A stretch of DNA of 62,319 nt, filler included, from Basidioascus undulatus (Eukaryota): NCBI GenBank assembly GCA_000826855.1. It is 3 parts of 3 records of this genome, joined end to end, with 100 filler letters (N's around TTAATTAATTAA, not from the genome) between each part and the next. Parts side by side here need not be neighbours in the genome. Positions count along the whole stretch, not along the records: positions 1 to 20,892 come from JTLS01001098.1; 2 more parts are not named here. One strand, given 5' to 3'. Below are positions 9,978 through 62,319 of this stretch, one piece after another. The translations under genes were made by a program, and so were the position numbers. Numbering within the stretch: position 1 is the stretch's first letter; each line of letters starts with the position of its first letter. The notes beneath the pieces are model-generated. The model did not search any database, was not told the DNA's origin, and saw only the letters and a list, made by a program, of their open reading frames with translations.

Positions 9978-11540
9978 TCTTTTGAAGGTATGGCAGTTGA
10001 AGTCAGCTCGCGAGGAACGAGACGAAGCAAGTACGTGGACGCATCGAGGTGCGACCGCGAGCACCTTGACAGCCGGACTAGTGAACGGCGCGACGCGTGA
10101 GTCAGTGAGCTGAGTGGGAAACAGACTTATGGCTATGAATCTTACATAAGAAGTGCCAGTGTGATGAGATGAGGGTGAGAGGTCACAGAAGAACAAAACC
10201 CACAAGTCCAGGTGCGGCTTGGACAGCATAGCGGCACATGAATTCAAACCCCGTCCGAAAGGCCCGGGCAGCAGCGGCAGTCTCAATAGGGCGGAGACTG
10301 CGTTTTCTTCTTTGTAATTATAAACAGGTATTTAACGTCTACGTAAGCTCCCCCAGTCCCCACAGTGAGGCCCGACGATCCTTGGCGGTGATTGTACACA
10401 GCGCCGTGAGACGACTGCATCACAGTTCGTGGGTACTGGCCGGGCGTTTTAAGCTTGCATCCGGGAAGTAATGTGTATTTTACAGAAATTCGTTCTTCAA
10501 ACCGTGGCTATAACGTAACACGCTAAGACGATTGAAAACGCCATTTGAGAAGATAAATATAAGTTACACTTGCCCACTAGTACTCTGGACATGGATTGCA
10601 CGAGGCAAGTTGCGGGTAGATCTTTCCCATGGCCTGTTTTTCTGCGCGATCAAAATGCTCCCCCCCCCCCNAAAATGCCCCCACCCCCCCCAGGCCAGCC
10701 ACCCCAAGATCACAAGTATATTGGTCATGATATATTTTTCAAGAGAACATTTGATACTGTACGCTTCTAAAGTTGTGTGCCAGGTCATGTGCTTTTGTGA
10801 CATGAACTTGTTGGGAACCACAAGCCGGACGTTGCTTTCCAGACTGGCTGCCGCCAAACCGCATCACTTAGTTGAATAGGAGGGTTCCGTAATTGTTATG
10901 TATAAAGCTATTCCCTGTGCCTTCCTCTCATCATGTTCTTGATTTTGGCCTCATCACTTGCAACGAACGAGGCTCCCATAACGCTCCTCAGATAAGCACG
11001 CCCTGTACCGTGGCTTCGTCCTCTAAAGGACACTGGTACAACAAAGCTTAAACTTCAATTTATACATCCTTCATTTGTCTATTTGATCGTTCAGTGGATT
11101 TTAGGTGAGGACACCAAACCTTCAACCGCACTCGTGAACGCTCTCATAAGGTCACCATTGGAAGAGATTTAATAGATGGGGGCTTAACCCTTGCTCTGCC
11201 AGTGAGCACCATTCTGCCAGGCTGCCCTCACACTGCACAAGGGTTTGCAAAGGCGTATCTTGCGGCCGTTGCAGGGTTAGAAATAGAAGGTGCTGCATAT
11301 GTACTCTTCTCAGGCCACCCTCATGTCTTGGGGGCGCTTTTCAGTTTTCCCGTGGAGGGAATTGACTTGTGACTTGCACACACTGCATCGCCCGGCAAGC
11401 GTCGGTCCGGCGCCGACGCTATCAGCTGGCCTCAGATAGCCTCCATCATCTACCTTTACCTCCTCTCTACCACTTGCGTGAAGAAAGCCCATCCATATCA
11501 AACCCCATTCTCTCCATCGAACAGACTGCTACTCGTAAAC

Positions 11541-16700: not shown

Positions 16701-19700
16701 ATGCCGCCGAGACGATCACTCCGCACTCGCACGCCGTCAGCGACCGCTGGAGCTGCTGCCGCCGACGCCATCGCTGCGGCCACGAACGGCGACACTCCGC
16801 GCGGTCGGAAGCTGAATCAGGCGAGCCCGCCGGGCGACGCGCCTGACGCGGGCGGCGGCGAGGCAGCGGCTGGAGAGCAGACGGAGGCTGGGCAGAATAG
16901 GCCAAAGAGGAGGGGGAGGGCTAAGAAGACGTATTGCGTGTGCGGCGGAGTGGACGACAAGACGCCGTGAGTGACATCTTTCCCTCGAACGGCGCGGCAG
17001 TGCGGGGGCAGCAGTATCACCCCCGGGGGACTGTAAGTGATGTTGAGTGCTTTCTTTCCAACCAGAATGATCAAATGCGAGGGGGGCTGTACGGAACAAT
17101 GGTGAGTCCAATTTCGCAGTGATCTCCGCAGGGCGGTCGCCTGGATGCCGTCACCTTGTCCGCAACTTCGCCCGTCGCCCTTGCTGACGGCCCTACCCTC
17201 GCCTCCCCTTCAATTTGGCTTAGGTTTCATTTTCGGTTCGTTGCATTTCCATAGAGAAGAGAACTTCGTCAAAGTTGGCATGATCCAGCGTATTGACCGC
17301 TGGACACCCCATGCAGGTGCATCGGCCTGACCGAGGAAGTCGCGGAGCGCATCGGTCAGTCCTTTCATACCTCGAGCAGCCCGGTGCTCGAAAATTGACC
17401 TTCAGATTATGTTTCAACCAGCTTCCTACTACTGCGCAAACTGCGAGAAGCGACTAGGGGTATCCACAACGAGTGAGTCACTTACTTCGCTTGTGACCGA
17501 GGCGGCATGTCTCGCTGGGCCTTTCGAAGGGGGATGTTCGTTCTCCTTCATTCGCAATGTAATTTTCGTTGCGATCACTTCCGCCTGAGACGACTCAAGC
17601 TCATCCTCGCTACCCGACAACTTCGCTCGTCGCCCTCGCCCCCGCTCCGTCCACCCTGGGCGGAGCGGTCCACCGCACGGCTGCCGGCTCGCCGCCGTCA
17701 TTTCGCGCTCAACTGCCTGCCATGTCGCACATTGGTCACGCTGTGCCTCAGGGCTTTCGGAGAGGCATGAGAGATGGCGGGAGGGCGGGGTGGGGATTCA
17801 GCCGGACGTGCATGCAGTTGAGCCGTAACGACTCGACTCTGTGCACGCTCTGGTCTGTGTGAGGGTGCTGCTGGACGATGGGGATGAGAGACAATTCGAG
17901 CGCGATATAGCCTCGCAAAATGCAACCCGCTCGAGAAGGGCCGAAGCGTGCGGACAGCCGGCCTGAAGGGCAGGGTCACTCCAGGACGTCTAGAGGGCAG
18001 GAGGGCTCGCGGCGGTCTGCATCGCTTTCTCACAGACACGATGTGGATGATGCTCAACGATGGGAGTTACTGACAACTCCACCCGTCTCTCGCAGTGAAG
18101 AACGAGAGCGAGGCCTCGACCAGCGCATCGTCCGCACCGCCCCCGCCGCCTGCAGCGCCTTCGCCGCCCGCCGAGCCTCAGGAACCGATGGAAGTCGACC
18201 CCGCCGCCGCCCCTTCGGAGCCGCTCGTTATCGAGCAGCCTGACCCTCTCCCTCCACCCGCTGTCGAGTCCGCCGCGGTCGAGCCTTCTACTCCTGCTGA
18301 ACCCGCTCCCGAGCCCTCCGTCTTCCCTTCCTCAACATCCGAAACGTCTGCGCCGGGCGCTGCCGACGAGTCCTCTGTCATGGAGACGTCCGCGTCGCCC
18401 AAGAAGGGTTCTGCGAGCCCCGCGAAGGGCAAGGCGAAGGCGAAGCCTGCTGCGCCTGCGACCAAGAAGCGGCGAACGTCCGACGCCAACGGCGAGGCGG
18501 AGGCACCCGAGCCGAAGAAGCAGCGCAAGCCGAGCTTTACGAAGAAGCGCAGGACGCCCGAGGAGGACGAGGACGAGCCAGTACCGATTAAGGATGAGCG
18601 GAGGAGGGGCAAGTTCATCAAGGACTCGGACAGGACTCCCGAGAAGAGCCCAGTGAAGGCTCCGAGGCAGGTGCGTAGGTTCCTTTCGGAAGTAGGTGGA
18701 ATGAGTGATGGGTAGGCAGATGCTGATATGATAGGAGGCGATACAGGCAAGCGACTTCTTCGTCACCCCTACCGCGACGTCTAAGTCGAGCGAGCGCCGC
18801 ACGTCCGGTCCAACGCCAGTGAAGACTGTCGTGCGTCGGGTCTCGGCCTCAGGCGGCGGCGGGGCTTCGAGCGCCCCGTCCGACTCGAAGGCGAGCTCGA
18901 GCAAGGACCGCGCAGCTGCGAGCGCCGTGCCCGACGATGGCGGGGCGCGCCTTCGCAACGTGTCGAGGGAGAAGCTCTCGGAGGCACTCGTGCCCATCTT
19001 TGTGGAGGCGTACACGCCGAAGGAGGACATCGTGTTGGGTGCGGACGGGGAGGAGGAAAGGAAGGCGCGGACTCCTAGCGCGTCTGCGAAGGAAGGCCCA
19101 ATCGAGATCGACGAGGACGAACCGGTCGAGAAGCAGGAGGCGGAGAACAAGCGCTCAGTGCCTATGGTCATCACCGACGAGCCCACACTGCCCGTTCCCG
19201 CACTACCGCCCGCGGCCGCATCCGAGCCGGCGCCTATTGCCCCACTCGAGGCCACACCGCTGCCACTCCATCCGGAGGGCGACGAAGCCCTCTTCGCGCC
19301 ATCCGCCACACCCGGCGCGAAGCCGGCCGTCGAGCCCGCCGCGCCTCCTTTCCCCGCGCGGCCTGCGCCGAGCCACGCCCCGCCCGGAGCTGATGCGCCG
19401 AGCGCGTCCGAGGTTCTCTCCACGCCGCTCGAGGCCGTCAAGACCCTCCCCTCCGCTGTCGGCAAGAGCGCGCTCGCGGACGGCGTCCCGCCCGAGACCC
19501 CGACGGCCGAGGGCGCGCCGCCTGCGCCCGTCCACGCGCAAGACCTCGTCCCGCCGACGGCGCCGGGCATCCTGCCTCCTTCCCCTACGAAGGCGACCTT
19601 TTCCGAGAACACGCCAAAGCAGGAACCGCAGGCGGCGGCTCCTCCAGCACCGCCAGCATCCGACCTTCCGCCCAGCACGAGCACCGCTGTCGCGCCGGCT

Positions 19701-20892
19701 GCGCCGTCGAAGAAGGAGGGACCGCAGCCGACCAAGAGGGAGGCGGAGATCAGGGTTGAGGCGGACGCGTATGCTGTCAGGCTGGAGCAGGCGCTTTTCG
19801 ACGCCCTGCATGAGATCAGCAAGAAGGACCAGCAGCCGACAGTGGGCCCGAAGTACCGGTACGTTACATCCACTCCGCGCTTCGACCACCCCTCCAACGC
19901 AGATAAGCTGATCTGGCCGGTGTACATAGGGAGAAGGTCCGCTCGCTCCTCTCGATACTCAAGTCAAAGACAAACCAGTACCTCTGGGACGGCATCGCGT
20001 CGGGCACGATCGAGCCAGTGCAGCTCGCGACGGCCCACCCGGAGGAGCTCGTGAGCGACAAGCGCCGCCAGCAGCTCGACGCCATCCGCAAGGCGTCGCT
20101 GACCAACTCGATCCGTCAAGTCGAGACGGGCCCGCGCCGCAAGTTCACGCACAAGGGCGAGATCGAGGTCGAGATGTACTCGCCGACCGGTACGTTTCGT
20201 TGCAGTTCTTCACTCACAGACGCGCGTGAGGCTCATTGTACTGTGTTCGAATAGGCGACGAACGCGGTGAAGAGCGCAAGGAATACCCGCTCGACCGCGG
20301 TCCCAGCTTCTCCCCCGAGACGGAAGCGTCCACGCCGTTTGCGGGCTCGCCGTTCCGGCGCGAGTCCTCGTCGATGCTCCCCGAGTCGCCTCAGCCGATG
20401 CACGGCTCGCCGCCGCCCACGCACGGCTCGCCCGCCATCTACTCGCCCGCCCTCGAGCCTGTGCAGGACGACGCGACGATTCGCGACCAGGCCGATGCGC
20501 TCCTGCACGACCACGCCGGTGGGAACGAGGAAACACACGAAGGCGCAGACGCGTTCGACCTCGGCCCCGGCTTCACGGTCGAGTCCATGTCGACCGCGCC
20601 GGGCCATGCCTTCTCTCCTCCGCTACCCTCCACGACCACCTCGGCCGCGCCGGCGCACTCCACTGCGTCCTTCGATCTGCGCGCCGTCTTCGGAGCTTCG
20701 GAGCACCCGCCTCGGACGGATGAGCGCGTCGAGTCGCCCCCGCCTGCGGGCATCCACGACTCCGCGAATGGCTTTGACGTTGGGACGTTCAAACTCGACG
20801 AGTTCGACATGTCCGCGTTTGACGCGGACCGCGGGTTCGGAGGAGAGTTCGACATGGGCTCGCCCTTCGACGGCGGGACGCTGCCGGAGGAG
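16701..20892 (+). CDS. BYE1: Bye1/DIDO-like PHD finger plus TFIIS central-domain protein, 3' end in assembly gap
   Basis: The PHD finger is assembled from small exons (YCVCGG..MIKCEGGCTEQW-FHFR-CIGL..YYCANCE). After a low-complexity linker comes a TFIIS-M domain (KYREKVRSLLSILKSKTNQYL..PEELVS) and the Bye1-typical KFTHKGEIEVE. Confidence 0.82.
17500..17896 (+). ncRNA. Candidate large intronic box H/ACA snoRNA-like structured RNA
   Basis: It lies in the 623-nt intron 17473-18095. A 5' multi-hairpin domain is followed by an ANANNA box (AGACGA, 17588-17593). A long 3' hairpin is closed by CTCATCC 17600-17606 / GGATGAG 17882-17888 and followed by ACA at 17891-17893. Pocket strands GCTAC/GATGG are complementary to LSU rRNA CCAUC-U-A-GUAGC. 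Confidence 0.55.
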
Positions 20893-20992
20893 NNNNNNNN
20901 NNNNNNNNNNNNNNNNNNNNNNNNNNNNNNNNNNNNTTAATTAATTAANNNNNNNNNNNNNNNNNNNNNNNNNNNNNNNNNNNNNNNNNNNN
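20893..20992. other. Assembly gap with artificial TTAATTAATTAA linker
   Basis: N-run, TTAATTAATTAA, N-run. The true gap must be larger because it has to hold the BYE1 3' end and the NMNAT 5' end. Confidence 0.95.
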
Positions 20993-51252: not shown

Positions 51253-52245
51253 ATGTCGATGGACATTGACCCCTCCTCCTCCACCGCCGCCCCAAGCGCG
51301 CCCTCCTCCAACCCGACGCAGAACCCCCAAGCGGCAGCGGCTGCGGCGGGAGGAATCTCCACGCCGGCGTCCTCTCCCTCCCCGTCCGTCTCCGCGTCCG
51401 CGTCGGCCTCGGCGCAGCAGCACCCCCCGCAGGACGAGTCCATGTCAATCCCGTCCTCGCCCTCGCCGTCCCCGCCGCCGCAGTCCGCTCCGCACTCGCA
51501 GTCGCACGCGGCGGGCAGGTCCACCGGCGGCNNNNNNNNNNNNNNNNNNNNNNNNNNNNNNNNNNNNNNNNNNNNTTAATTAATTAANNNNNNNNNNNNN
51601 NNNNNNNNNNNNNNNNNNNNNNNNNNNNNNNTCTCTTGGTGCCTTTCTGCTTCCCCCGCAGCAGGCATGCGATGTTCACTGAAGTGCTCGCGCGCAATCC
51701 CATCATCCGCGCCCACGTCCCACCCGCGCGCATCACACATTGCGCTCCTCATGTCCTTCGGGTCGAACATGTCGCCCCCCCCGTCCATGGGCGCCGGCCC
51801 AAGCGGCACAGCGATGGTGTCCGGCGGCGGGGGGTCGAGCATGGGCAGTCTCGGCGGCGGGGGCGCGCCCATGACCCGGAGCTGGAGCACGCCCGTGCCG
51901 ACGCAGCGCGAGTTCGAGGTGCTCGAGCGCAAGCGCTCCCTCGGCCACTCCTCCGCCCCCAACCGAAACAAGGAGAACGCGCGTCCGGGTCCCTCTGCCC
52001 ACCTCTCCTTCACGTCTCTCAACTCTCCGTCGTACCTCGCCGGCCCCGGCACATCCTCCTCCTCATCGCCCGGTATGACCGAGAGCGGGAGCCCTCGCCC
52101 GGGCTTCGCGCGCTTCGCGAGCAGTCCGAGCGTCCCACTTAGCCCGACAACCACGACACGGCGCCCCAGCGCTCAGGAGATGCTTGGACCGGGGAAGGCC
52201 GCATTCGCTATGACCGCGATGGCCGCAGGCGGTGGAGGGGACTAG
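51253..52245 (+). CDS. Low-complexity Ser/Pro/Gly-rich protein of unknown function, interrupted by assembly gap
   Basis: An ORF from ATG 51253 (MSMDIDPSSS..) runs into the gap. A terminal exon after the gap ends at TAG 52243-52245. Both have GC3-rich codons, but the two halves may belong to different genes. Confidence 0.5.
51532..51631. other. Assembly gap with artificial TTAATTAATTAA linker
   Basis: Same N-linker-N structure as at 20893-20992. Confidence 0.95.
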
Positions 52246-52566: not shown

Positions 52567-55500
52567 TTAGTTGCAGGCAGGTGAAGACTTGAGCATAGCC
52601 GCGAGCGCCTTGCGGTCCTCCTCGCCCAAGCTCTCCAGCACGCGCGCGAAGCCGGCAAGCGTGCCCTCGCGGCTGGACTGCGCGAACGCGACGATTGAGT
52701 TCTCGATGTGGGCCTGGCGCGTCTGCTCGATCACGTCCTCGACAACCTTCTTCTGCGTCTCGATAAAGTTCGCGACAGCCGCGTCGTCGGATTCGTCGAT
52801 CGCGTGCGCGTCCAGGAGCGCGCGCAGCTGCGCGACCCGCTCCGCGCGCGACAGCTCCTGGTCCGCCTTGGCCAGGCGGGAGAAGACGGCCTCCTCGTCC
52901 AGGCGGCGGCGGAGACGCTTGTAGAAGTACCGGCGAGACTCGGTCCACTCGCAGGGGGCTGCGCAGCCCTTGGCTTGCATGCGGCCGACTGCACAAGGGG
53001 GGGCGGATTAGTGACAGAGGTTGAAGGCGGCGAGGCTGGGGAGGCGGCTTACCCCGGTCGTGAAGGTCAGAGTAGAGAAGCGCAATTTGCTGGTAAGTCG
53101 GGTAGAGCTCCTTCTCGCGCGCAGCGAGCGCCTCAGTCGCCTCCGCGCGCCCCTCGGCCGTCTTGGACTCGTCCTTCGACGCCGCCTTGAGCTCGGCGTA
53201 CCGCTCGTCCAGGCGTGCCATCGTCGCGAGTACCTTGTCCTTGCGGTACTTGATCTCGACGATACCCTCCGGCTCTGTATCATTTGACGACCTGTCAGTG
53301 GGCCGTTCGTTCAGAGGGGGTGGACAGAAGAAAAGACGCACCAAGGACACCACCGCGCGCCCGCGGGTCGGCGTACATCTCCATCTGCGCCTGGTTGATG
53401 CTCGGATCGAGGACGACCCAGGCACCACCACGGAGCTCGCCGTTGGGGACGATGTAGACGAACACCGGCTGCTTATACGCGGACAGGCCGTCGACGATCT
53501 GCGGAACGTAAGTCAGGGTGGCAGTGAGGAATTAGATTGCGTCAGTGAAATGCATACCATGGCACCGAACTTCAACACCTGGTCCGCCATGTCCTGCTGA
53601 CCGCCAGAGAAGCCACGCCAGTTCGCGAAGATGATGAGCGGCAGGCCCTCGCGGTTGAAGTCGAAGATCGCAGACGCGGTCTTGTGCGAGCTGTTGGGGT
53701 ACCAGACCTGGTAGTGCGTCATACGTCAGCGTCACGACGATACGCGGGCGAAGCGTGGACGCGGTCAAGCGTACCTGGCCGGCCTCCATGATCTTCTGCT
53801 CGAACGAGAGAGGGTTGGCGGGGTCGGCGGGGACGACGCGCTCAATGGTGCGGGCTGCGGGAATAACACATGATATGTCAGCAGCGAAAGCGGCAACGAT
53901 AAAGGGAAAACAGCTGACTCTCGACAGCGATGACACCCATCGGGATACCACCAAGACGAGCGCGACCGGTGACCTATCGAAGCGAGGAACATCAGTACAC
54001 AGCCTCGAGACGTGAAACCGCGATTAAAATACGTACGACAGTCTGAGCCCAGCCGCCGAGGGTCTCCTGGAAGGAGCCCTTGTCGAAGAAACCGGACAGG
54101 AACTTGGACTGCTCGTCGACCTCCTCCGTCTTGCCCTCGATGAACCAGCGCGGGTCGTACGCGCCCTTCGGCGGCAGGTACTCGACCGGGCGGTCCCACG
54201 CGTCGCTCTGCGGCGCGATCGGGATCGGACGGCCCTTGCGGTCGGGGATGTACGAGAGCCACTGGACGATGGACGCGGCGCCCTCGAGGTCGTTCGGCGC
54301 GACGAGGTGCGAGACACCGTTTTTGTACATGATCTGCGTGCCGCCGAGCTGGAGGTTGGACGTGTAGACCTCGCGGCCGAGGACCTTGTTCAGCGCGGGC
54401 GCGCCCGTGAGGATGATCGGCTGGCCCTCCACCTGGACCGCGCGCTGGCCGAGACGGACGAGGTACGCGCCGATACCGACGGAGCGGGCGGTGACCAGCG
54501 TGATGGTGAAGATGTCGTCGTAGGCGCGCGAGGTCTCACCGGCGATGAGACCAGAGCCGCGGAGACACTCGACACCGAGGCCGTCGCGTAGGCCGATGAT
54601 GTCGGTGATCTTGTGCCGCCGCTCGCCCTCGTCTTCAATGAGCTCGGTGCGCACGCTCGCGGTCGCCTCCTTGAGGGACTCGTGCGCCTCGAGCGTGAGG
54701 TAGAGATACTTGAAACCCTTGTCAGGACGCTCGTTGTCGTTCCACGCGACCGAGAAAAGGTTGATGATCTCCTCGGCGAGGCCGATGCGCGCGCCGGAGT
54801 TGGCCGAGAGGTAGATGCGCGGGAGACCGAGGCGACGAGCAAGCTGCGTGACCTTATAGAAGAACTCGTCCTCGAGCGGGCCGAACGAGCCGATGTTGAA
54901 GGTGATGTCGTTAGCGACGACGACGACGCGGCGGCCCTTGGGGTACTCGGGCGTGTGGATGGTGAAGATCCAGCCGACCATGCCGCACGCGTTCGAGCCG
55001 GGCGGGCGATTGACCTCCTGGAGCTCGTTGTGCTCGTCGAGCACGAGCTCGGTCGCCGTGAGCGGCTCGGCGGGGATGGTGATGCTGGGGACCTGCGCAG
55101 AGACCTTGGACCACACGCCGCGCACGGCCTGGCGGAAGAGGTCGGGGAAGTCGTAGACGTAAGTCGTGCCGACGACGTGCGCCTTGTAGCGCTTCGGCTG
55201 GAGCCACTCCTTGGTCGGGTACGGCGCATTGACGGGCTGGAGGTGGAGCGCGCCCTGCGGGCCGATCGACTTGAGAATCGTCGGGCCGCGCTCGGTCACG
55301 ACCTCCTGGTAGGCCTCGTACTTGACGACGAAGCCCGAGACGTTCTCGATGATCGCGCGGATGGGCTGGACGTTGCCTTCCTCGTCCTCGAGCACAATGC
55401 GGATCTCGGCGCCGGTGACGCGGAGGCGCCAGAGACGCTTGCCGTGGCGGTCGATGAAGCCCGCGAGCGCCTCCTGCACGTCGTCGAACGTGACGCGGAG

Positions 55501-58500
55501 GTTGTAGAGGAAGTTGAGCGAGATGTGGTTGCAGTCCGCGGTCGGGTGCTCCGCGGTCGTGACCTCCAGCGCGTCGAGAATGTCGGTGACGAGGCGGTCC
55601 GACTCGGAGATGAGGTAGTCGGTCGTGCGCATTGCGCCGCGCAGGCGACCGGGGCGGACGAGTGCGCGGACGAAGAAGCGGTTGTCCGAGGCGTTCTCGC
55701 GGCCGACGGCGTGGTACATGTGGATCTGACGATTCTCGATGAACGACGGCGTGATCTTGAAGTTCGAGAGGCGGCTGAGCTCGAGCTGGTACGCGAGCGC
55801 GGGCTCGATGTTACGGATCGCCTCCTGCTCGGCCCACTTGCCGTTGCCCGCGTCGCGCAGCGTGAAGTACCACGGGTACTCGCCCTTGCGGCAGATCATG
55901 TACGTCACGCGGCGGATGCCGCGGCCGGTAACCTGCGCGCCGTGCTCGCTCGTGACCTCGAGGAACTTCTCACGCCAGGCCTCGTTCGGCATGTCGTCGT
56001 CGGCGTCGAACGGACGGACGGCGATGTTGAGGACGTTCGGCGGCTGAGCCTCGACGCCGTGGCGCTCGAGGTGCTCCTTCGAGTCGAACTCGGGGAAGAG
56101 CTCGAGGATACTGGCGAGGTGGCGCTGGAGGCTCGGGAGGTTCGGGAAGGAGGTGATGGCACCGAAGCGGATCGGCTCGAGCTGGTTGCGCTTGACGGCA
56201 TAGGTGAGGTCCGACATGGAGCCGATGCGGGTCATGTCCCTGTAGAGTAGTTCAGTCAGCGTCGGCTCGCGGCTGAACGGAATGCAAGGACAGACTGACT
56301 TGAACGAATCGACGCGCGGAGTCTGCGGGGCGTCAGCCGACGCGCCGAGGCGGAAGCGCCAGCTGACGACGTGCGGGGCGCCGTCGCCGCCCACGCCCTG
56401 CTGGTAGTCCATGTGCAGGACGGAGTAAGCGCGGTAGGCGCGCGAGACGTAGACCTCCAGAGCGGCTGATGGTGAAACTCGCCGTCAGCAACAGGTCGGC
56501 AATGCAGGGGCAGTTGGAACGCACCTAGCGCGACCCACGGGTCCTCGTGGTCGAAGAAGGTCGAGAGAACGTCGTACACGGTGTAGCGCGAGTCGGTCAG
56601 CTCCTTGAGGATGTCGGGCGCAGGGAGGCTGTTCGGCCGGGCAACATTAGCTACGACATTCGGACATGGGACTTTGAAAGAAACAAGCGTACCGGTGACC
56701 AGTCCCCTGCTCGCCGTAGAAGCTCGTGGTGACGGAAGCCTTGAGGATGGTCTCCATCTGGCCGACACGCTCCTCGTACGACGGGATCTGCGTGAGGATG
56801 AGGACCTCGCGCGCCTTGAGCGCAACCTTCGTCGAGAGCCTAGAACCGCGCATGTGAGCGACTTGGAAGTGATCGGATCGAAAGATTAGAAGCTACACAC
56901 TTGCTCTCGAGCGAGGCAGTCACCTTCAGCGCGGCGCTGAGGCGGTTGTCGGAGGCGGTGAAGCTGCCGCCGCTGGTCTTGACGAGGTCGAGAAGCGCGT
57001 AGACGAGGCGGTTCTTGGACTGGACCTTTGAGTGGGAGAGGACGAGGGTGGTGACCTGGTCGAGGTCGGTCTTGTGCTGCTCGCGTAGCTTGAGGACGGC
57101 CTCCTCCTCGCCGACGCCGAAAAGCGCCTCGACGTCGTTGTAGCGCTGGATGAAACCCGCGATGACCGTCCACTGGTGGACCTTGAGACCGTACCGGAAC
57201 AGCTCGGCGATCTCGTACAGCTGGCCGAACGACGCGCGGAACGTCGCGCGGTCCTGCGCGCGGATGTTGGCGGCGATGAAGTTCTCGACGAGCTTGTGCA
57301 GGCGCGCGGCGGGGAACTCGGCGCCCTTGGAGTGCGCGTCGTCGACGAGCTCGCGGATCGAGTCCTCCAGCTTAGACGGCATGCGGCCCGAGAGCGTGGA
57401 AAGTACGGCGGTCGTCTGCGAGAACGGCAGCTCCTGGTCGGCGAAGACCTCGAGGAGGTCCTTGAGTGTCGGCTGCATGATCGTGAGGTTGTCGTAGCCG
57501 TCGAGGATGTTGTTGATGACGTCGACGAGGTACGCGAGCTTCTGGTGCGGCTTCGAGCCGACGACGGTGGGCAGGCCGTACTTGGGAAGCAGGCCCTCGA
57601 ACGGCTTGGCGTGCTTGACGCGGCTCGGGTCGTCGAGCGTGAGGATACCGACGACCTCACCCGGCTGGAGCGTGACGCCGGGCTGCTTGACGAAGAGCGG
57701 GACACCGTCCTCGGTCGCTATGAGCGGCATGTACATCTTCATGACCTGCGGACAGAAACAATTCGACATCAGCTGCGCCCACTTCTGCAAAGAGGTTCAA
57801 CCTCGACGCACCTCGATCTCGGCGTAGGCCTGGCCAGCCTTGACGGGGTCGCCGCTCTCGACGAGGAAGCGGACGAGCTTGCCGGGGGACGGGCTGCGGA
57901 GCTGCGTCGGGTCGTTCTCCTGCTCGATCAAGCAAGTCTGCGCAAGGGAAAAGACTGTCAGTAAGTGCGCCATTGAAATGCGCAGTCAAGCCAAGCTCAC
58001 CTTGGAGTCGACCATGAGACGGAGGGCGACAGCCTCGTCGCGCCAGTAGACGCTGTGCGACTTGCCGTCGAGGAGGACGAGGAGACCGCCGTCCGCGAGA
58101 GGGCGGACGCCGACGCGGGTGGTGCCGCCATTGATGTAGAGGACCCAGGACGTGGACGAGGCGCGGGCGGCGGTAAAGTTGTAGCGGACGCCCTCGTAGA
58201 TGAACTCGACGCCGAAGACGGTCTTGAGCGTGTCGCGCGCGGGGACCTGGCCCTTGTCAAGCACGCGGCGGTACTCGGCCCAGCACGCCTCGCTGGCGAC
58301 GTACGCCTTGGTGACTGCGCCGCAGATGACGGCGAGGGACAGGTCCGGCCGCTCGGCGGTAAGCTTGTTCGAGATGAGTGTGTCGAGCCAGCCGGTCGTG
58401 ATGGTGTTGTCCTCGAACGCCTGCGTTTCAAGCAGCTTGATCAGGTACTCGACCGTCGTGCGGAAGTCGCCGCGGATCGAGATCTCCTTGAGCGCGACGA

Positions 58501-60725
58501 CCATGTTCTTCCGGCTCTCGGACCGGTCCGCACCGTACGCGAAGATGTGGCCGAACTCTGCGAGCGCAATCAATTGAAGTCGTCAGTCGCGAACAAAGAC
58601 AATCAAGTAGAAGGGACTTTGGACACACGGGAATCAGCGAACTCGTGCAGCCCTCCCGCGGTACCGACGGAGAAGTAGCCCCAGACATTGGTGTTGGAGC
58701 GGAAGTTGAGCTCCTGGAGCGAGCCGGAGGACGGCTTGAAGCCGGCGTCGGGGTTCTCTGCGGTGATGCGGACGGCGACGACGTGGCCCTTGGGCTTGGG
58801 CTTGCGCTGCGCCTGGAGCGAGTCAGGGTTGACAAAGTCGAAGTCAATCTCGCTCGATCCGTGGGGCTCCTTGCCGTACAGCGTCCGGATGTCGCGGATC
58901 CGGTGCAGCGGGATCCCCATCGAGATCTGCAGCTGCGCCGCGGGCAGGTTCACGCCCGAAACCATCTCCGTCGTCGGGTGCTCGACCTGCAGACGCGGGT
59001 TGAGTTCGAGGAAGTAGAACGTATCGTCGGCGTGCGAGTAGAGGTCTGCAGAGCAAGGCCAGGGAGGGGTCAGTATTCGGGGGTGGAAAGAGAAGGGAGG
59101 GGAGGAGCGGGAGGGAGGTAACGCACACTCGACAGTACCCGCCGAGACGTAGCCGACGAGCTTGGCCAGACGGACAGCAGCCTTCTCCATCTCCTCGAAC
59201 CGCTCCGCACTCGCGATCGTCACTGGCGCCTCCTCGATGATCTTCTGGTGCCGACGCTGGACTGAGCAGTCGCGCCCGAACAGCGAGATGGCGTTGCCGT
59301 ACTGGTCCGCGAGGAGCTGCACCTCGAGGTGGCGCGCGGCGCCGGCGAGCTTCATGATGAAAATGGGAGAACCTGAGCACCACAGCCGTTCCTTCAGTAC
59401 CTTGCACCCACCATGTGGGAATGTGAGTGCGCCCCCCGAACTCACCAGGTACCTCGCCGAGCACAGCGTTGAACGCGAGCGTGAACTCCGCGTCGCTGTC
59501 GACCTTGCGGATGCCCTTCCCGCCGCCGCCCTCGGACGCCTTGATCATGACCGGAAATCCGATCTTCTGCGCGCGGTCGAGGCCCTCCTCGACGCTCGTC
59601 ACGCACGCGTTGCGGTACGCGGCGTCGGGGACAGTGACGAAGCCCTGGGGCGAGAGCTCGGTGTCGGCGATGCCCGTGCCGGACCAGGCCATCGTCGGCA
59701 CGTCCGCCGACTGCGCGACGATCGTCGACGAGATCTTGTCGCCTAGCGAGCGCATTGCCGAGCCGGGCGGTCCGATGAAGACGATCTTGTGCTTGGACGC
59801 CGCGAGGGAATCGGGCAGGCGAGGGTTCTCCGAGGCGTGGCCCCTAGAAACACAATCCCCATCATGATCCGTTCAAAACTCTAACTTTTGACCTGAAAGA
59901 AAAAGAGAAAAGGACAGAGAAGGAAGAGAGAAGACGCACCACCCCGCCCAGACGGCATGCACGCCCGCGCGCTCAGCGACGTCGACGATAAAGTCGACGT
60001 TGGCGTAGTTGTTGTTGTTGCTCCCGCCGGGGACCTCGACGTACTGGTCGGCCATTCGGATGTAGTCCGCGTTGACCTTGAGGTCCTCGGGCGTCGCCAT
60101 GACGGTGAACTCGACCGCGCGCTCCGTCCCGAACGTCTCGTAGCACCATTTCCGGATAGAGCGGATCTCCTTCACCGCGGCGATACCTGGTCCGGGAGGG
60201 AGACAGTTCAGAATTGAGTGGGGGAGAAGGGGAAGGAGGGAAGGCAGGGGAAGGAAGAAGACGGACCGTTGTTGGCGATGAGGACCTTGGTGATCACAGT
60301 GTGACCGCCGTGCGCCTTCACAAAGTCCGCGACCTTGGATGAGGGCGCAGACTGGATGGTGTTGCCGCCTGCGCATCATCAAACAAACACCACAAGAGCA
60401 TGTCAGGGAGTTGTTCAGTGCGTGCAGTGAGCGCTGGGGAAATTGTCAAGAGCCAGAGACAGAGCTCTCCAGCACCAGGACCGGAAGCAAGCCTTGAGCT
60501 GCTGCCCCTTCGCCCCTTGCCCAACTCAAACCGCCCAGGAGAGCTCCCAGAGCGTCCTGAATGCTCACCACACCTCCCACACCGCTTCTAAGTCCGCTCG
60601 AGCCCGCCGAGGAGCTCGCCAGACGCCCTCCCGCCTGATTCCCACGCTCCGGAAGGTAGCAGTCCAGCGAAACACAGTTGCTCACCGATAAAGTGCGCGA
60701 CCTTGTCGTGATCGTAAGAAGCCAT
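52567..60725 (-). CDS. ACC1: Acetyl-CoA carboxylase (BC-BCCP-central-CT), multi-exon
   Basis: [71 protein letters not shown], biotin site EIE-VMKM, CT domain [51 protein letters not shown] at 52569-52567. Confidence 0.98.
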
Positions 60726-61561
60726 GGCCGATTCGTGAGAGGGGTAAGTACGGAGAATCAAAGGCGAATCGAGAAAGAAGCAAGGTCGACAGTCGGGAGC
60801 TGTCTAGAGGAGGAGAGAAGACGTTGGGGGTGCGGGGAGGCGCGCTCAAGTATAGTGTGGGAGCGGTCGGCAGCGGGGGAGGGGAGGGGAGGGTAGATAA
60901 TGAGGGGAGGAGTAGGAGTTTCGGACGAGGAGGATGGGATGGGGAGCAGCGAGCGGCAGTCGAAGGGGTAGGGCGACCTGGCGAAGCAGTCCAAGTTGCG
61001 AGTCGATGGGGCGGCATTCGCAAGCGTGGGGACGCGCCAGCCCTTGCCTGTCGGGGTTGTCAACTTCGCTCGCTGCCCACCCTTCTGAAAGCGAGGTATT
61101 TTCTTTTATGCGAACCTCTTGCAGGAAGATGAAATTATTAGACTTTATTATGGTCAATGCAACCAACAAGCACCGGCCCATCCGAGTGCTCACAGCGACT
61201 TCCAATCCCCAGCCGGCCCCCCTGCGATGCTGCGAGTTCCCGCGAGCCAGGCCGCCCGACCCAGCGCGGGTGGAACCGGCTTCCCGCCGAACTCCGACTG
61301 CTCGTCCCCACAGACTTCTCCAGCTGCAAACGACTTCTTATCGGGCGTATGCAAGACAGGCTTGGCAAATGCGATAATAAATGATTTTACTAGTAATAAA
61401 AGGGGTTACAATGCGGATGATTATACGAGGCCGTTGGGAAAGGGTGCGGGGCGAACTTGGGCCGGACAGATTTCGCGCTGAGGCACGCAGACCAGCTCTC
61501 GCGGACGGAGTCCTAACCGCCGCGGCGTGATCGTCGTCGGTGCGGAAGTATTCCTCGTCGA

Positions 61562-62280
61562 TCAGCTTTGGAACTTCCTGAGCGTCGCTACCTCGTCTAG
61601 GAGCGCTTGGAGTTGCTGCTCGTCGTGGTTTTGTAGACTGTGTGCGGGGAGGGTCGATGTTTCGAGGTTGGGGAGCCGTGTGTGATGAAGTTGGGGTGTA
61701 TCGGCGTGGAGGGGAGCGGCGAGAGCAGGTATGAGTGGTGGTGAGCGTTGGAGAAGGAGAGCGCGGCGAGAAAGGAAGGCACGGGTGGTGGTAAACGTTG
61801 CATGGCGAGGAACGAAGTTTTGGGGTCGAGGAGCGTTGTGGGATGGAGGTGGGTTGTGTTGGCGTAGATGTGGAGCGCGGCGAGAAGGAAGTGCGTGGGT
61901 GATGGTGAAATTTGGGAATGGAGAGCGCAGCGAGAAAGGAAGGGGCGTGGGTTCGTGGTGGAAGGGGTGAAGGGAGAAGTCAGCGTCCGTCCCTGCCCGC
62001 TCGCACAATCCAGCCCACGCACCTCGGTATCAGCGTCCGCGCCTCGTCCACCTCCTCCGGACACAAGTTCCCAATCTGCGCCGCCTCAAACTGGTGCAAG
62101 GACTCGTCCTTTTTGAACACCCTGCGACCCACCCCACCACACCCCTCACTCAGTAAGTTCCCTCGTCCTTCGCTCCTCACCGCGGATGCGACCCAACGCA
62201 CTCTCGAACCGACATCGCCGCGTCCTGCGTCTTGAAGCGCGCAAAGGTCTGCACGTAGTCGTACGCTTTCTTGAACACCC
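61562..62280 (-). CDS. RPB4: RNA polymerase II subunit Rpb4, last three exons (5' part outside window)
   Basis: VFKKAYDYVQTFARFKTQDAAMSVRE-VFKKDESLHQFEAAQIGNLCPEEVDEARTLIPS-LQNHDEQQLQALLDEVATLRKFQS*. Confidence 0.93.
61703..61945 (-). repeat. Dispersed imperfect ~23-nt pyrimidine-rich repeats within RPB4 last intron
   Basis: Plus-strand GAGAGCGCGGCGAGAAAGGAAGG at 61757-61779, with variants at 61872-61891 and 61921-61943 and a partial copy near 61703. Confidence 0.75.
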
Positions 62281-62319
62281 TGCGCGCGAGAGGGATGTGA
62301 GTGAGCGCGCTGGGCCTCG

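Follow-up and report, generated by a model that had tools for sequence, protein, structure and literature searches.

In the intron-encoded box H/ACA snoRNAs of fungi, a hairpin domain, a hinge with the H-box motif ANANNA, a second hairpin and an ACA triplet follow one another on the sense strand of the host intron. Both boxes are single-stranded, and a pocket in the form of a two-sided internal loop, in which the guide strands abut a stable upper stem, pairs with conserved rRNA both before and after an unpaired U-N, the target uridine lying 14–16 nt upstream of the box. The 3′ hairpin is usually 60–70 nt long, and very large H/ACA snoRNAs exist in budding yeast. For Wallemia sebi, the nearest sampled lineage to the organism treated here, 92% of the H/ACA snoRNAs are reported as ‘lost’ in homology searches (PMC5824354). 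Internal pairing that joins the region of the 5′ splice site to that of the branch point is reported for long introns of budding yeast (e.g. that of RPS17B; PMC2536676, PMC12350175); these introns are long in a genome of short ones and combine a bridging stem with a looped-out interior. Miniature inverted-repeat or foldback elements residing in introns are another class of structured insert, comprising a few hundred bases that form a long imperfect hairpin.

Here we describe a 623-nt putative intron of the fungus Basidioascus undulatus, identified in a 62,319-nt stretch of assembled DNA (the window). Its core, of about 400 nt, resembles intron-encoded box H/ACA snoRNAs in the order of elements predicted for it when folded alone, in its largely single-stranded boxes, in its sense orientation within an intron, in the spacing of 14 nt between the start of the 3′ guide and the ACA, and in a candidate bipartite complement to conserved rRNA. 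In contrast to those RNAs, its 3′ arm is 289 nt long, the upper stem at the pocket has only 3 bp, no pocket exists in the multibranched 5′ domain, the guide is only 5 + 5 bp, homology to any Rfam H/ACA family is lacking, and the host is a chromatin/transcription factor gene. The length of the intron among short introns, the predicted bridging stem and the looped-out interior are features in common with the structured introns of budding yeast, from which it differs in that the excess stability resides in the interior and not in the bridging stem, and in that the predicted distance between splice site and branch point is no better than in shuffled sequences. Like foldback elements, it contains a few hundred bases forming a long imperfect hairpin; unlike them, it has inverted ends of 7 bp, 24 G-U pairs among the 138 predicted pairs, a largely sense-specific stability and no further copies in the window.

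Host gene and putative intron

The putative intron is bounded by consensus splice signals (GTGAGT at 17473–17478, CTGAC at 18070–18074 and CAG at 18093–18095), and the reading frame is kept across it, the A at 17472 being completed by TG at 18096–18097 and continued in the ORF at 18074..18715. These signals and the frame suggest that the segment would be spliced as drawn. The upstream exon ends in a PHD-type pattern, which was assigned by eye in a finger split across short exons, and a later exon (19930–20189) encodes a TFIIS_M domain (Pfam PF07500, E 4.8e-12 over 19931–20188). The host may be a PHD/TFIIS_M (Bye1-like) gene of a deep-branching basidiomycete, with 17473–18095 as its unusually long spliceosomal intron, an assignment that forms part of the explanation preferred in the Discussion.

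The six other introns of this gene, read from GT..AG boundaries and frame, are 99, 122, 81, 67, 64 and 71 nt long, which bears out the earlier claim that the 623-nt intron is an outlier in length (5 to 10 times its neighbours). No coding sequence was found in it: all six frames are interrupted, and none of the nine ORFs tested matched Pfam. When the TFIIS_M exon was used as query, 595 pattern matches were obtained in metagenome contigs and 436 candidates among longer proteins; none of the former was confirmed as a relative of the gene, and none of the latter was a significant homologue.

A discrete structured element on the sense strand

The whole intron folds more stably on the sense strand than its shuffled versions (z −2.35 with 0/20 as good; z −2.68 with 0/100), and the same was observed when shuffling was done in 50-nt blocks (z −3.32, 1/100), so that composition blocks do not account for the structure. 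There is no excess stability on the antisense strand (z +0.8) or in any of the 18 background folds calculated. A probable long intron of ACC1 in the same window (60400–61022) is without such an excess (z values of roughly +0.9 to +1.0), so that length by itself does not bring structure. The intron had also been characterized as almost entirely base-paired; its paired fraction is ordinary (0.697 vs. 0.677 ± 0.018 in 15 shuffles), and this claim has to be dropped.

The excess stability is located in the segment 17496–17896 (Table 1), where the sense strand gave z −2.80 (1/100 shuffles as good) and, in a second test, z −3.17 (1/60), and the antisense strand z −0.89. The structured part stops a few bases from the ACA near the 3′ end of this segment. 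The limits of the RNA proposed in the preliminary description thus coincide with a discrete sense-strand structured element of ~400 nt. No strong inverted repeat at the DNA level lies behind the fold: the best local alignment between its two halves, equalled in 3/300 shuffles, spans only ~24 nt. To judge from the folding models, the structure would presumably form in vivo.

Folded alone, the core yields the layout originally proposed, namely a 5′ domain, AGACGA, a 289-nt arm and ACA, and every short motif named for it is present in the sequence exactly where it had been placed. The 5′ domain was retained in part. Its hairpins at 17526–17549 and 17552–17574 appear in the minimum-energy fold, and the region 17498–17599 is more stable than most shuffles (z −2.25, 4/200 as good), but the AGGCGG/CCGCCT closure is seen only when 17496–17896 is folded in isolation; neither the whole-intron fold nor the centroid contains it. 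Folding of the entire intron at minimum energy does give the closing stem described earlier for the 3′ arm, and G-U pairs lengthen this stem to 10 bp. The arm consists of a C-rich 5′ half and a G-rich 3′ half and is the more stable on the sense strand (z −3.32, 0/100; antisense z −1.92, 6/100). A tight G-quadruplex motif was observed on the sense strand at 17779–17795.

Table 1. Features of the putative intron, its structured core and the flanking exons (positions are those of the window)
Feature	Position	Strand	Basis
Upstream exon, last portion of PHD-type Cys/His pattern (..YYCANCEKRLGVSTT)	17422..17472	+	By-eye reading
Putative spliceosomal intron, 623 nt	17473..18095	+	Splice signals and frame read from sequence
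Structured core, equal to the RNA proposed earlier	17496..17896	+	More stable than shuffles, sense only
5′ domain, AGGCGG (17500–17505)/CCGCCT (17581–17586), 6 bp, closing three small hairpins	17500..17586	+	Minimum-energy fold of isolated core
AGACGA, matching H-box pattern ANANNA	17588..17593	+	Sequence; last four bases unpaired in ensemble
3′ arm, 289 nt, closed by CTCATCC (17600–17606)/GGATGAG (17882–17888)	17600..17888	+	Predicted fold
Putative 5′ guide strand GCTAC	17609..17613	+	Complements LSU 3′ of target U-A; mostly unpaired in ensemble
12-bp hairpin within arm	17642..17668	+	Predicted fold; local window 17576–17675 z −2.8
Near-perfect 59-nt hairpin within arm	17799..17857	+	Sense z −4.76 (0/300); antisense z −3.33 (1/300)
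Putative 3′ guide strand GATGG	17877..17881	+	Complements LSU 5′ of target U; starts 14 nt before ACA
ACA, 2 nt past closing stem of arm	17891..17893	+	Unpaired, probability at least 0.97
Remainder of intron including branch point, no excess structure	17897..18095	+	z −0.21, 61/150 shuffles as good
Downstream exon, low-complexity, rich in Pro/Ala/Ser/Lys	18096..18670	+	Sequence reading

Relation of the fold to the splice signals

A 13-bp stem (17482–17496/18030–18046) is predicted in the minimum-energy fold, also when the splice signals are held single-stranded; it is situated 10 nt past the 5′ splice site, and 24 nt separate it from the branch point. The predicted distance between these two sites is 17, compared with a median of 18 when the interior is shuffled (33/120 as short), and 23 compared with 26 when the signals are held open (40/130 as short). 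Because this distance does not differ from that in shuffles, splice-site compaction was set aside as the cause of the structure and does not specifically account for its excess.

H/ACA-like boxes and candidate pocket

In the isolated core, the elements are arranged in the order hairpin, hinge, hairpin and tail, with a three-hairpin multibranch as the first hairpin domain. One nucleotide separates AGACGA from the 5′ stem and six separate it from the arm; in the ensemble, the first two bases of the motif take part in pairs. It is one of three ANANNA matches in the intron, which also contains seven ACA triplets; ANANNA is a weak motif that would be expected fairly often in A-rich linkers. The claim that GATGG starts 14 nt ahead of the ACA proved correct, this distance being made up of the 3′ guide itself, one strand of the 7-bp lower stem and two further nucleotides.

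The guide geometry claimed for the arm could be upheld only in part. The boxes, the 14-nt spacing and the 5 + 5 match around an unpaired U-A are all there, but a two-sided pocket under an upper stem is not: at minimum energy, unpaired bases occur on the 5′ side alone, as a 13-nt bulge, and bases 17879–17881 of GATGG are mostly paired with 17607–17609 in the ensemble. If the guide strands are forced open, at an expense of +5.2 kcal/mol, an upper stem of 3 bp remains, including a G-U pair, and is followed by an 8-nt bulge; the two extra unpaired nucleotides at the top of the pocket, conceded at the outset, are seen on the 3′ side of this forced-open form. A scan for canonical pockets in hairpins of up to 110 nt gave no matches, and the 5′ domain is a multibranch without a pocket.

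The chance rate of the motif set depends on how strictly it is defined. With strict criteria tailored to the intron, the combination of boxes, stems and guide occurs in 1/3000 intron shuffles, and the skeleton without the guide match in 13/3000. An ACA adjoining a 7-bp stem is found in 1087/3000 shuffles, and in 45/3000 when an rRNA match is required too. A flexible score that trades one feature against another reaches the value of the intron in 28/2000 shuffles, and a looser test finds the full arrangement in 113/1000. In the rest of the window, nine other ACA positions on the two strands have the same composite H/ACA-likeness score or a higher one, including 19308, in an exon of the host gene, and 10896 on the minus strand (score 27, local fold z +0.64). 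With motif sets of equal quality at other places in the window, the guide RNA remains a candidate.

Complementarity to rRNA

The 22-nt LSU rRNA motif quoted in the preliminary description is real, since it occurs exactly in at least 107 metagenome contigs annotated as eukaryotic LSU rRNA, and the 5 + 5 match flanking an unpaired U-A in this conserved sequence is likewise confirmed, all pairs being Watson-Crick. The complement corresponds to positions 940–944 and 947–951 of the Rfam LSU model, in the context CCAUC-U-A-GUAGC, and a 6-nt internal loop in a universally conserved LSU stretch begins with the target U (model position 945). A 5 + 5 guide is of minimum length; this one is impossible to extend, and many alternative matches of 9–11 bp exist nearby.

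The assignment of the target to about position 932 of yeast 25S rRNA probably does not hold. Anchoring on Gm805, Am807 and Am817 in a published table (PMC5699541) places it probably at U813. In that table, no modification is listed at 813 or 932. When the numbering was checked on a metagenome LSU sequence, the anchors 805, 807 and 817 fitted by construction; of the eight other listed sites, two had the base predicted by this offset, so that the anchoring is valid just locally.

Searches for known RNA families and mobile elements

The Rfam search envisaged in the preliminary description matched no family. At gathering scores there were no matches in the whole window, and no H/ACA family reached E 10 in 17000–18500 or 17485–17905; the only weak matches were two hairpin microRNA families (E 2 and 9.7), far below thresholds and at chance level. 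Little weight attaches to this blank, since nearly all H/ACA snoRNAs of Wallemia sebi are reported to escape detection by homology (PMC5824354).

Several other candidates were rejected. For a box C/D snoRNA (RUGAUGA/CUGA), there is no perfect C box, and the two C-like motifs with one mismatch have terminal stems of only 1–2 bp. A second hairpin-hinge-hairpin-ACA unit of ordinary size at 17896–18034 has a hinge without ANANNA and no pocket at 14–16 nt, and was missed by the scans. An inverted-repeat mobile element would have had its inverted ends limited to 7 bp, with no other copy of any part in the 62-kb window, and neither long terminal repeats nor a clear target duplication was found at the intron. 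An internal duplication of the branch-point region (17860–17897 vs. 18042–18079) is not significant, 12/200 shuffles scoring as well, and the same applies to a derivation of the C-rich and G-rich halves from the neighbouring exon (75/300 and 29/300 shuffles).

Discussion

The explanation to which we incline, at somewhat less than an even chance, is that this is a structured long intron in which the motifs occur by chance and from which no separate trans-acting RNA is produced. While still part of the pre-mRNA, the central 400 nt would form a compact domain of several hairpins, and the bridging stem would loop this domain out and so place the branch point close to the 5′ splice site. Splicing and degradation of the intron would follow, presumably without a stable RNA product and with nothing acting in trans, and the 5 + 5 rRNA match, like the ACA and the H-like box, would be an accident of A-rich single-stranded linkers and a wide search space. 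The consensus splice signals with the frame kept, the confinement of the excess stability to the sense strand of the core, the prediction of the bridging stem, the nine ACA sites that are as good or better, the non-canonical pocket, the lack of an Rfam family and of C/D boxes, and the internal pairing reported for long yeast introns in the papers cited above all agree with this explanation. It fits less well with the splice-site to branch-point distance, which is not shorter than in shuffles, and with the ACC1 intron, which is also long and has no excess structure. It also leaves unaccounted for why the structure stops near the ACA and why the motif set is rare in shuffles by the strict and the flexible count, and neither composition blocks nor a strong inverted repeat supplies the fold.

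The coincidence of the excess structure with the proposed RNA, down to its stop at the ACA, speaks for a ~400-nt intron-encoded box H/ACA-type RNA, freed by debranching and trimming, in which GCUAC and GAUGG would guide Cbf5 to the LSU uridine or which would act as an rRNA chaperone. So do the largely single-stranded boxes in the right order, the 14-nt spacing, the all-Watson-Crick match in a conserved LSU loop, the rarity of the skeleton and of the full set in shuffles, and the small weight of the Rfam blank. The motifs are present as described, but the pocket is non-canonical, the set is not exceptional within the window, and the looser test also finds a full arrangement in some shuffles; the guide is minimal, the arm is far beyond the usual size, the 5′ domain offers no pocket, the yeast table lists no modification at either position, and the other 200 nt of the intron would go unexplained. 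We regard such an RNA as possible and on balance rather unlikely. A similarly doubtful, more specific form is a lineage-specific RNP RNA of this Wallemiomycetes relative that pseudouridylates or chaperones the LSU loop at model U945, and with it goes, just as uncertainly, the location of the target loop in LSU domain II between the 2′-O-methylated A807 and A817. It is improbable, in our estimate, that the core is some other functional RNA, such as a small-RNA hairpin precursor (e.g. the 59-nt hairpin), a stable intronic RNA or a cis element for splicing or retention. The sense-strand stability, that hairpin, the G-quadruplex motif and the fact that the sole weak Rfam matches are hairpin microRNA families are compatible with it, yet there is no significant family match, no specific defining motif was found, and nothing here separates it from neutral structure. 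Still more improbable is that 17473–18095 is not one intron, and that a small exon, an alternative promoter or first exon, an opposite-strand gene or a decayed inverted-repeat element in a short intron is concealed in it. The length of the intron, the terminal inverted ends of the arm and the stability of the 59-nt hairpin on both strands would suit this; the interrupted frames, the ORFs without Pfam matches, the absence of a second copy, of long terminal repeats and of a clear target duplication, and the non-significant duplication and exon-origin tests argue against it.

The real anomaly is a stable, sense-strand-specific fold of 400 nt within a long intron, which still wants an explanation. 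Should the H/ACA interpretation be wrong, the locus serves as a caution, in that H/ACA-like boxes and stems together with a 10-bp rRNA match occur about 10 times in 62 kb of genome. Should it be true, the core would offer an initial approach to the H/ACA guides that are ‘missing’ in the Wallemia lineage, would show the extent to which the hairpin above the pocket can expand, and would imply that a conserved rRNA loop dense in methylations contains a new pseudouridine.

The proposed long intron of a Bye1-like gene

The interval 17473-18095 (+) is plausible as a single 623-nt intron, since splice signals are present (GTGAGT at the start, CTGAC at 18070-18074, and CAG at the end) and its excision joins A17472 to TG18096-18097 and carries on the long open frame 18074..18715. 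In the host gene, a TFIIS_M domain lies downstream (Pfam PF07500, E 4.8e-12, 19931-20188) and a PHD-type Cys/His pattern, recognized by eye, runs across short exons upstream; the product is thus consistent with a Bye1-like protein. Runs of N, recorded as assembly gaps or masked stretches, occur at 20893-20936, 20949-20992, 51532-51575, 51588-51631, and 10671; the first four lie in the filler between records, and the first pair falls within the 3' part of this gene and breaks it up.

The preliminary description regarded the intron as a length outlier, and this holds within the gene, where six other introns delimited by GT..AG and frame measure 99, 122, 81, 67, 64, and 71 nt, but may not hold across the window. 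In the acetyl-CoA carboxylase gene (52591-62287, -), nine gaps between consecutive tblastn segments span 44-80 nt, whereas one further gap of ~1.7 kb (60348-62025), with only ~25 residues covered, probably represents one or more long introns. Over an 830-aa query (53992-56484), the carboxylase shares 75% identity with its Wallemia ichthyophaga counterpart; the remaining listed matches, all from other basidiomycetes, reach ~62-66%. The organism is therefore a relative of the Wallemiomycetes that has been little sampled.

The intron contains no box C/D motifs, none of its nine ORFs matches Pfam, no part of it has a second copy in the window, and neither half of the arm derives from the adjacent exon. 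The branch-point region looks duplicated, but not significantly so (an equal score was reached by 12 of 200 shuffles). A 22-nt pyrimidine-rich stretch (17618-17639, +) matches 17163-17184 (+) in the second intron of the gene at 91%; either a chance effect of low complexity or an intronic motif may underlie the resemblance. A predicted bridging stem (17482-17496 with 18030-18046) resembles those reported for structured long introns of yeast (PMC2536676, PMC12350175). The spacing predicted between the 5' splice site and the branch point is no shorter than that in shuffles, being matched in 33/120 and 40/130 of them, so such compaction appears generic and does not account for the excess stability described below.

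Fold stability

The impression that the intron is almost entirely base-paired is unremarkable, because 69.7% of bases are paired in the minimum-energy fold compared with 67.7 +/- 1.8% in 15 shuffles. Unlike the paired fraction, the fold energy is unusual in comparison with shuffles, and the excess is found on the sense strand, in the core (the proposed RNA) and its 3' arm, with none in the rest of the intron (Table). It persists in a 50-nt block shuffle, which preserves local composition; the C-rich half of the arm and its G-rich counterpart therefore do not explain it. Across nine further segments of 623 nt in the window, taken on both strands, z ranged from -0.19 to +3.89; among them is a sample of the probable long carboxylase intron, and this sample has no excess structure (z about +0.9 to +1.0). 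The predicted pairing is largely RNA-level: 24 of 138 predicted pairs are G-U, and inverted DNA similarity between the arm halves is restricted to ~24 nt (equalled in 3/300 shuffles). These predictions point to a discrete, sense-strand-specific structured element whose limits agree with those of the proposed RNA.

The sole part of the core resembling a DNA-level palindrome is a near-perfect 59-nt hairpin (17799-17857), which is stable on the sense (z -4.8) and the antisense (z -3.3) strand alike. Within the arm, the G-rich half also carries GGGAGGGCGGGGTGGGG at 17779-17795 (+), a G-quadruplex motif of four G runs separated by three 1-nt loops. It is the tightest among seven plus-strand and four minus-strand motifs of this kind in the window, and would form in competition with the predicted hairpin.

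Table. Sequence strings, fold statistics (shuffles folding as well), and competing ACA positions
Feature	Coordinates	Strand	Observation
AGGCGG	17500-17505	+	string present
CCGCCT	17581-17586	+	string present
AGACGA (H-box candidate)	17588-17593	+	string present
CTCATCC	17600-17606	+	string present
GCTAC (putative 5' guide strand)	17609-17613	+	string present
GATGG (putative 3' guide strand)	17877-17881	+	string present
GGATGAG	17882-17888	+	string present
ACA	17891-17893	+	string present
Whole intron	17473-18095	sense	z -2.35, 0/20
Whole intron	17473-18095	sense	z -2.68, 0/100
Whole intron, 50-nt block shuffle	17473-18095	sense	z -3.32, 1/100
Whole intron	17473-18095	antisense	z +0.78, 16/20; z +0.80, 83/100
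Core	17498-17896	sense	z -3.17, 1/60
Core	17496-17896	sense	z -2.80, 1/100
3' arm	17600-17888	sense	z -3.32, 0/100
Rest of intron	17897-18095	sense	z -0.21, 61/150
Other ACA positions	19308, 30196, 39252, 45144	+	flexible score >=23
Other ACA positions	16147, 16143, 10896, 10811, 470	-	flexible score >=23

H/ACA-like anatomy

All strings named in the preliminary description were read directly at their positions. The proposed H/ACA layout was recovered in part: when 17496-17896 was folded alone, a 5' domain closed by AGGCGG/CCGCCU, the AGACGA hinge, a 289-nt arm closed by 10 bp, and an unpaired ACA 2 nt past the stem appeared in that order, but the 5' domain is predicted to be multibranched without a pocket. 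The 3' guide, lower stem, and 2 nt sum to the claimed 14 nt to the ACA, reportedly the classical H/ACA distance, a rule attributed to Ganot et al. and Ni et al. in 1997.

The pseudouridylation pocket, the defining part of an H/ACA RNA, appears to be absent in any convincing form. The minimum-energy fold joins 17601-17609 to 17879-17887 and 17623-17625 to 17876-17878, so that 13 nt bulge out on the 5' side and no base is unpaired on the 3' side. Holding the two guide strands open takes 5.2 kcal/mol and yields a three-pair upper stem (one G-U), two extra unpaired 3'-side bases, and an 8-nt bulge above. A scan for canonical pockets, in which each guide strand must directly border an upper stem of 4 bp or more, found none in hairpins of up to 110 nt and one site, unrelated to the candidate, in hairpins of up to 320 nt. 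An Rfam search for a family matching the element was blank, which carries little weight because homology searches miss 92% of H/ACA families in Wallemia sebi, according to a fungal snoRNA survey (PMC5824354).

Motif background

Under criteria tailored to the candidate, an ACA adjoining a 7-bp stem occurred in 1087 of 3000 shuffles, and the successive addition of the H box, the 5' closing stem, and the 5+5 rRNA match left 87, 13, and 1. Under loose criteria the full arrangement appeared in 113/1000 shuffles, and the strict skeleton alone was found at two other loci within the window. A flexible score, which allows stem length to be traded against guide length and permits wider offsets, gave the candidate 23, a value reached by 28/2000 shuffles. 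The motif set is unexceptional in this genome, because nine other ACA positions in the rest of the window (both strands) score at least 23, one of them in an exon of the PHD/TFIIS_M gene. The best of the nine, 10896 (-), scores 27 and belongs to a hairpin-ANANNA-hairpin-ACA arrangement (10896-11176, -) whose lower stem has 9 bp and whose LSU rRNA match is 6+6; it lies in an AT-rich, apparently intergenic setting, lacks excess structure (z +0.64), and is probably a chance match.

Putative rRNA target

The LSU motif quoted in the preliminary description is real: it recurs without mismatch in at least 107 metagenome contigs, among which complete rDNA units annotate as eukaryotic SSU, 5.8S, and LSU. 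It corresponds to Rfam LSU model positions 937-958, where a 6-nt internal loop of the consensus structure begins with the target U (945). The bipartite guide has the correct polarity around the unpaired U-A, the 3' strand pairing 5' of U and the 5' strand pairing 3' of U-A. The 5+5 match cannot be extended, and many alternative rRNA matches of 9-11 bp occur in the same region. The assignment near yeast 25S position 932 is probably wrong. The consulted passage of a yeast table (PMC5699541) lists Gm805, Am807, and Am817 but no modified residue at either 813 or 932; since the sole G-N-A-N9-A pattern in the conserved stretch sets G805 at model position 937, the target would be U813. The three anchor sites fit by construction, and 2 of 8 other listed yeast sites have the expected base at the same offset in the metagenome (not yeast) LSU, so the anchor is valid only locally.

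Interpretation of the element

The unusual structure, the suggestive coincidence of structure and boxes, the non-canonical anatomy, and the false-positive rate were weighed together. A large intron-encoded H/ACA-type RNA would account for the hairpin-hinge-arm-ACA order of the isolated core, the guide spacing and polarity, a genuine LSU motif with its target at the start of an internal loop, and the rarity of the tailored set and flexible score in shuffles, and the Rfam blank scarcely counts against it. It is a reasonable candidate that fails the pocket test: the pocket is one-sided and costly to open, the canonical scan of shorter hairpins is empty, the 5' domain offers no substitute, and the short guide has many competitors nearby. 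Most important, the motif evidence is at window background level, as the nine rival ACA positions demonstrate, the best of them without unusual folding, together with the frequency of the loose arrangement and the two other strict skeletons. We consider this reading rather unlikely. A functional RNA of another kind is appreciably less probable, and the least probable reading is an error in the gene model or the remnant of a decayed insertion. Tentatively, at somewhat below an even chance, we favour a long intron whose core is folded and whose boxes arose by chance, the fold of this element being predicted to be more stable than expected by chance, though its paired fraction is ordinary.
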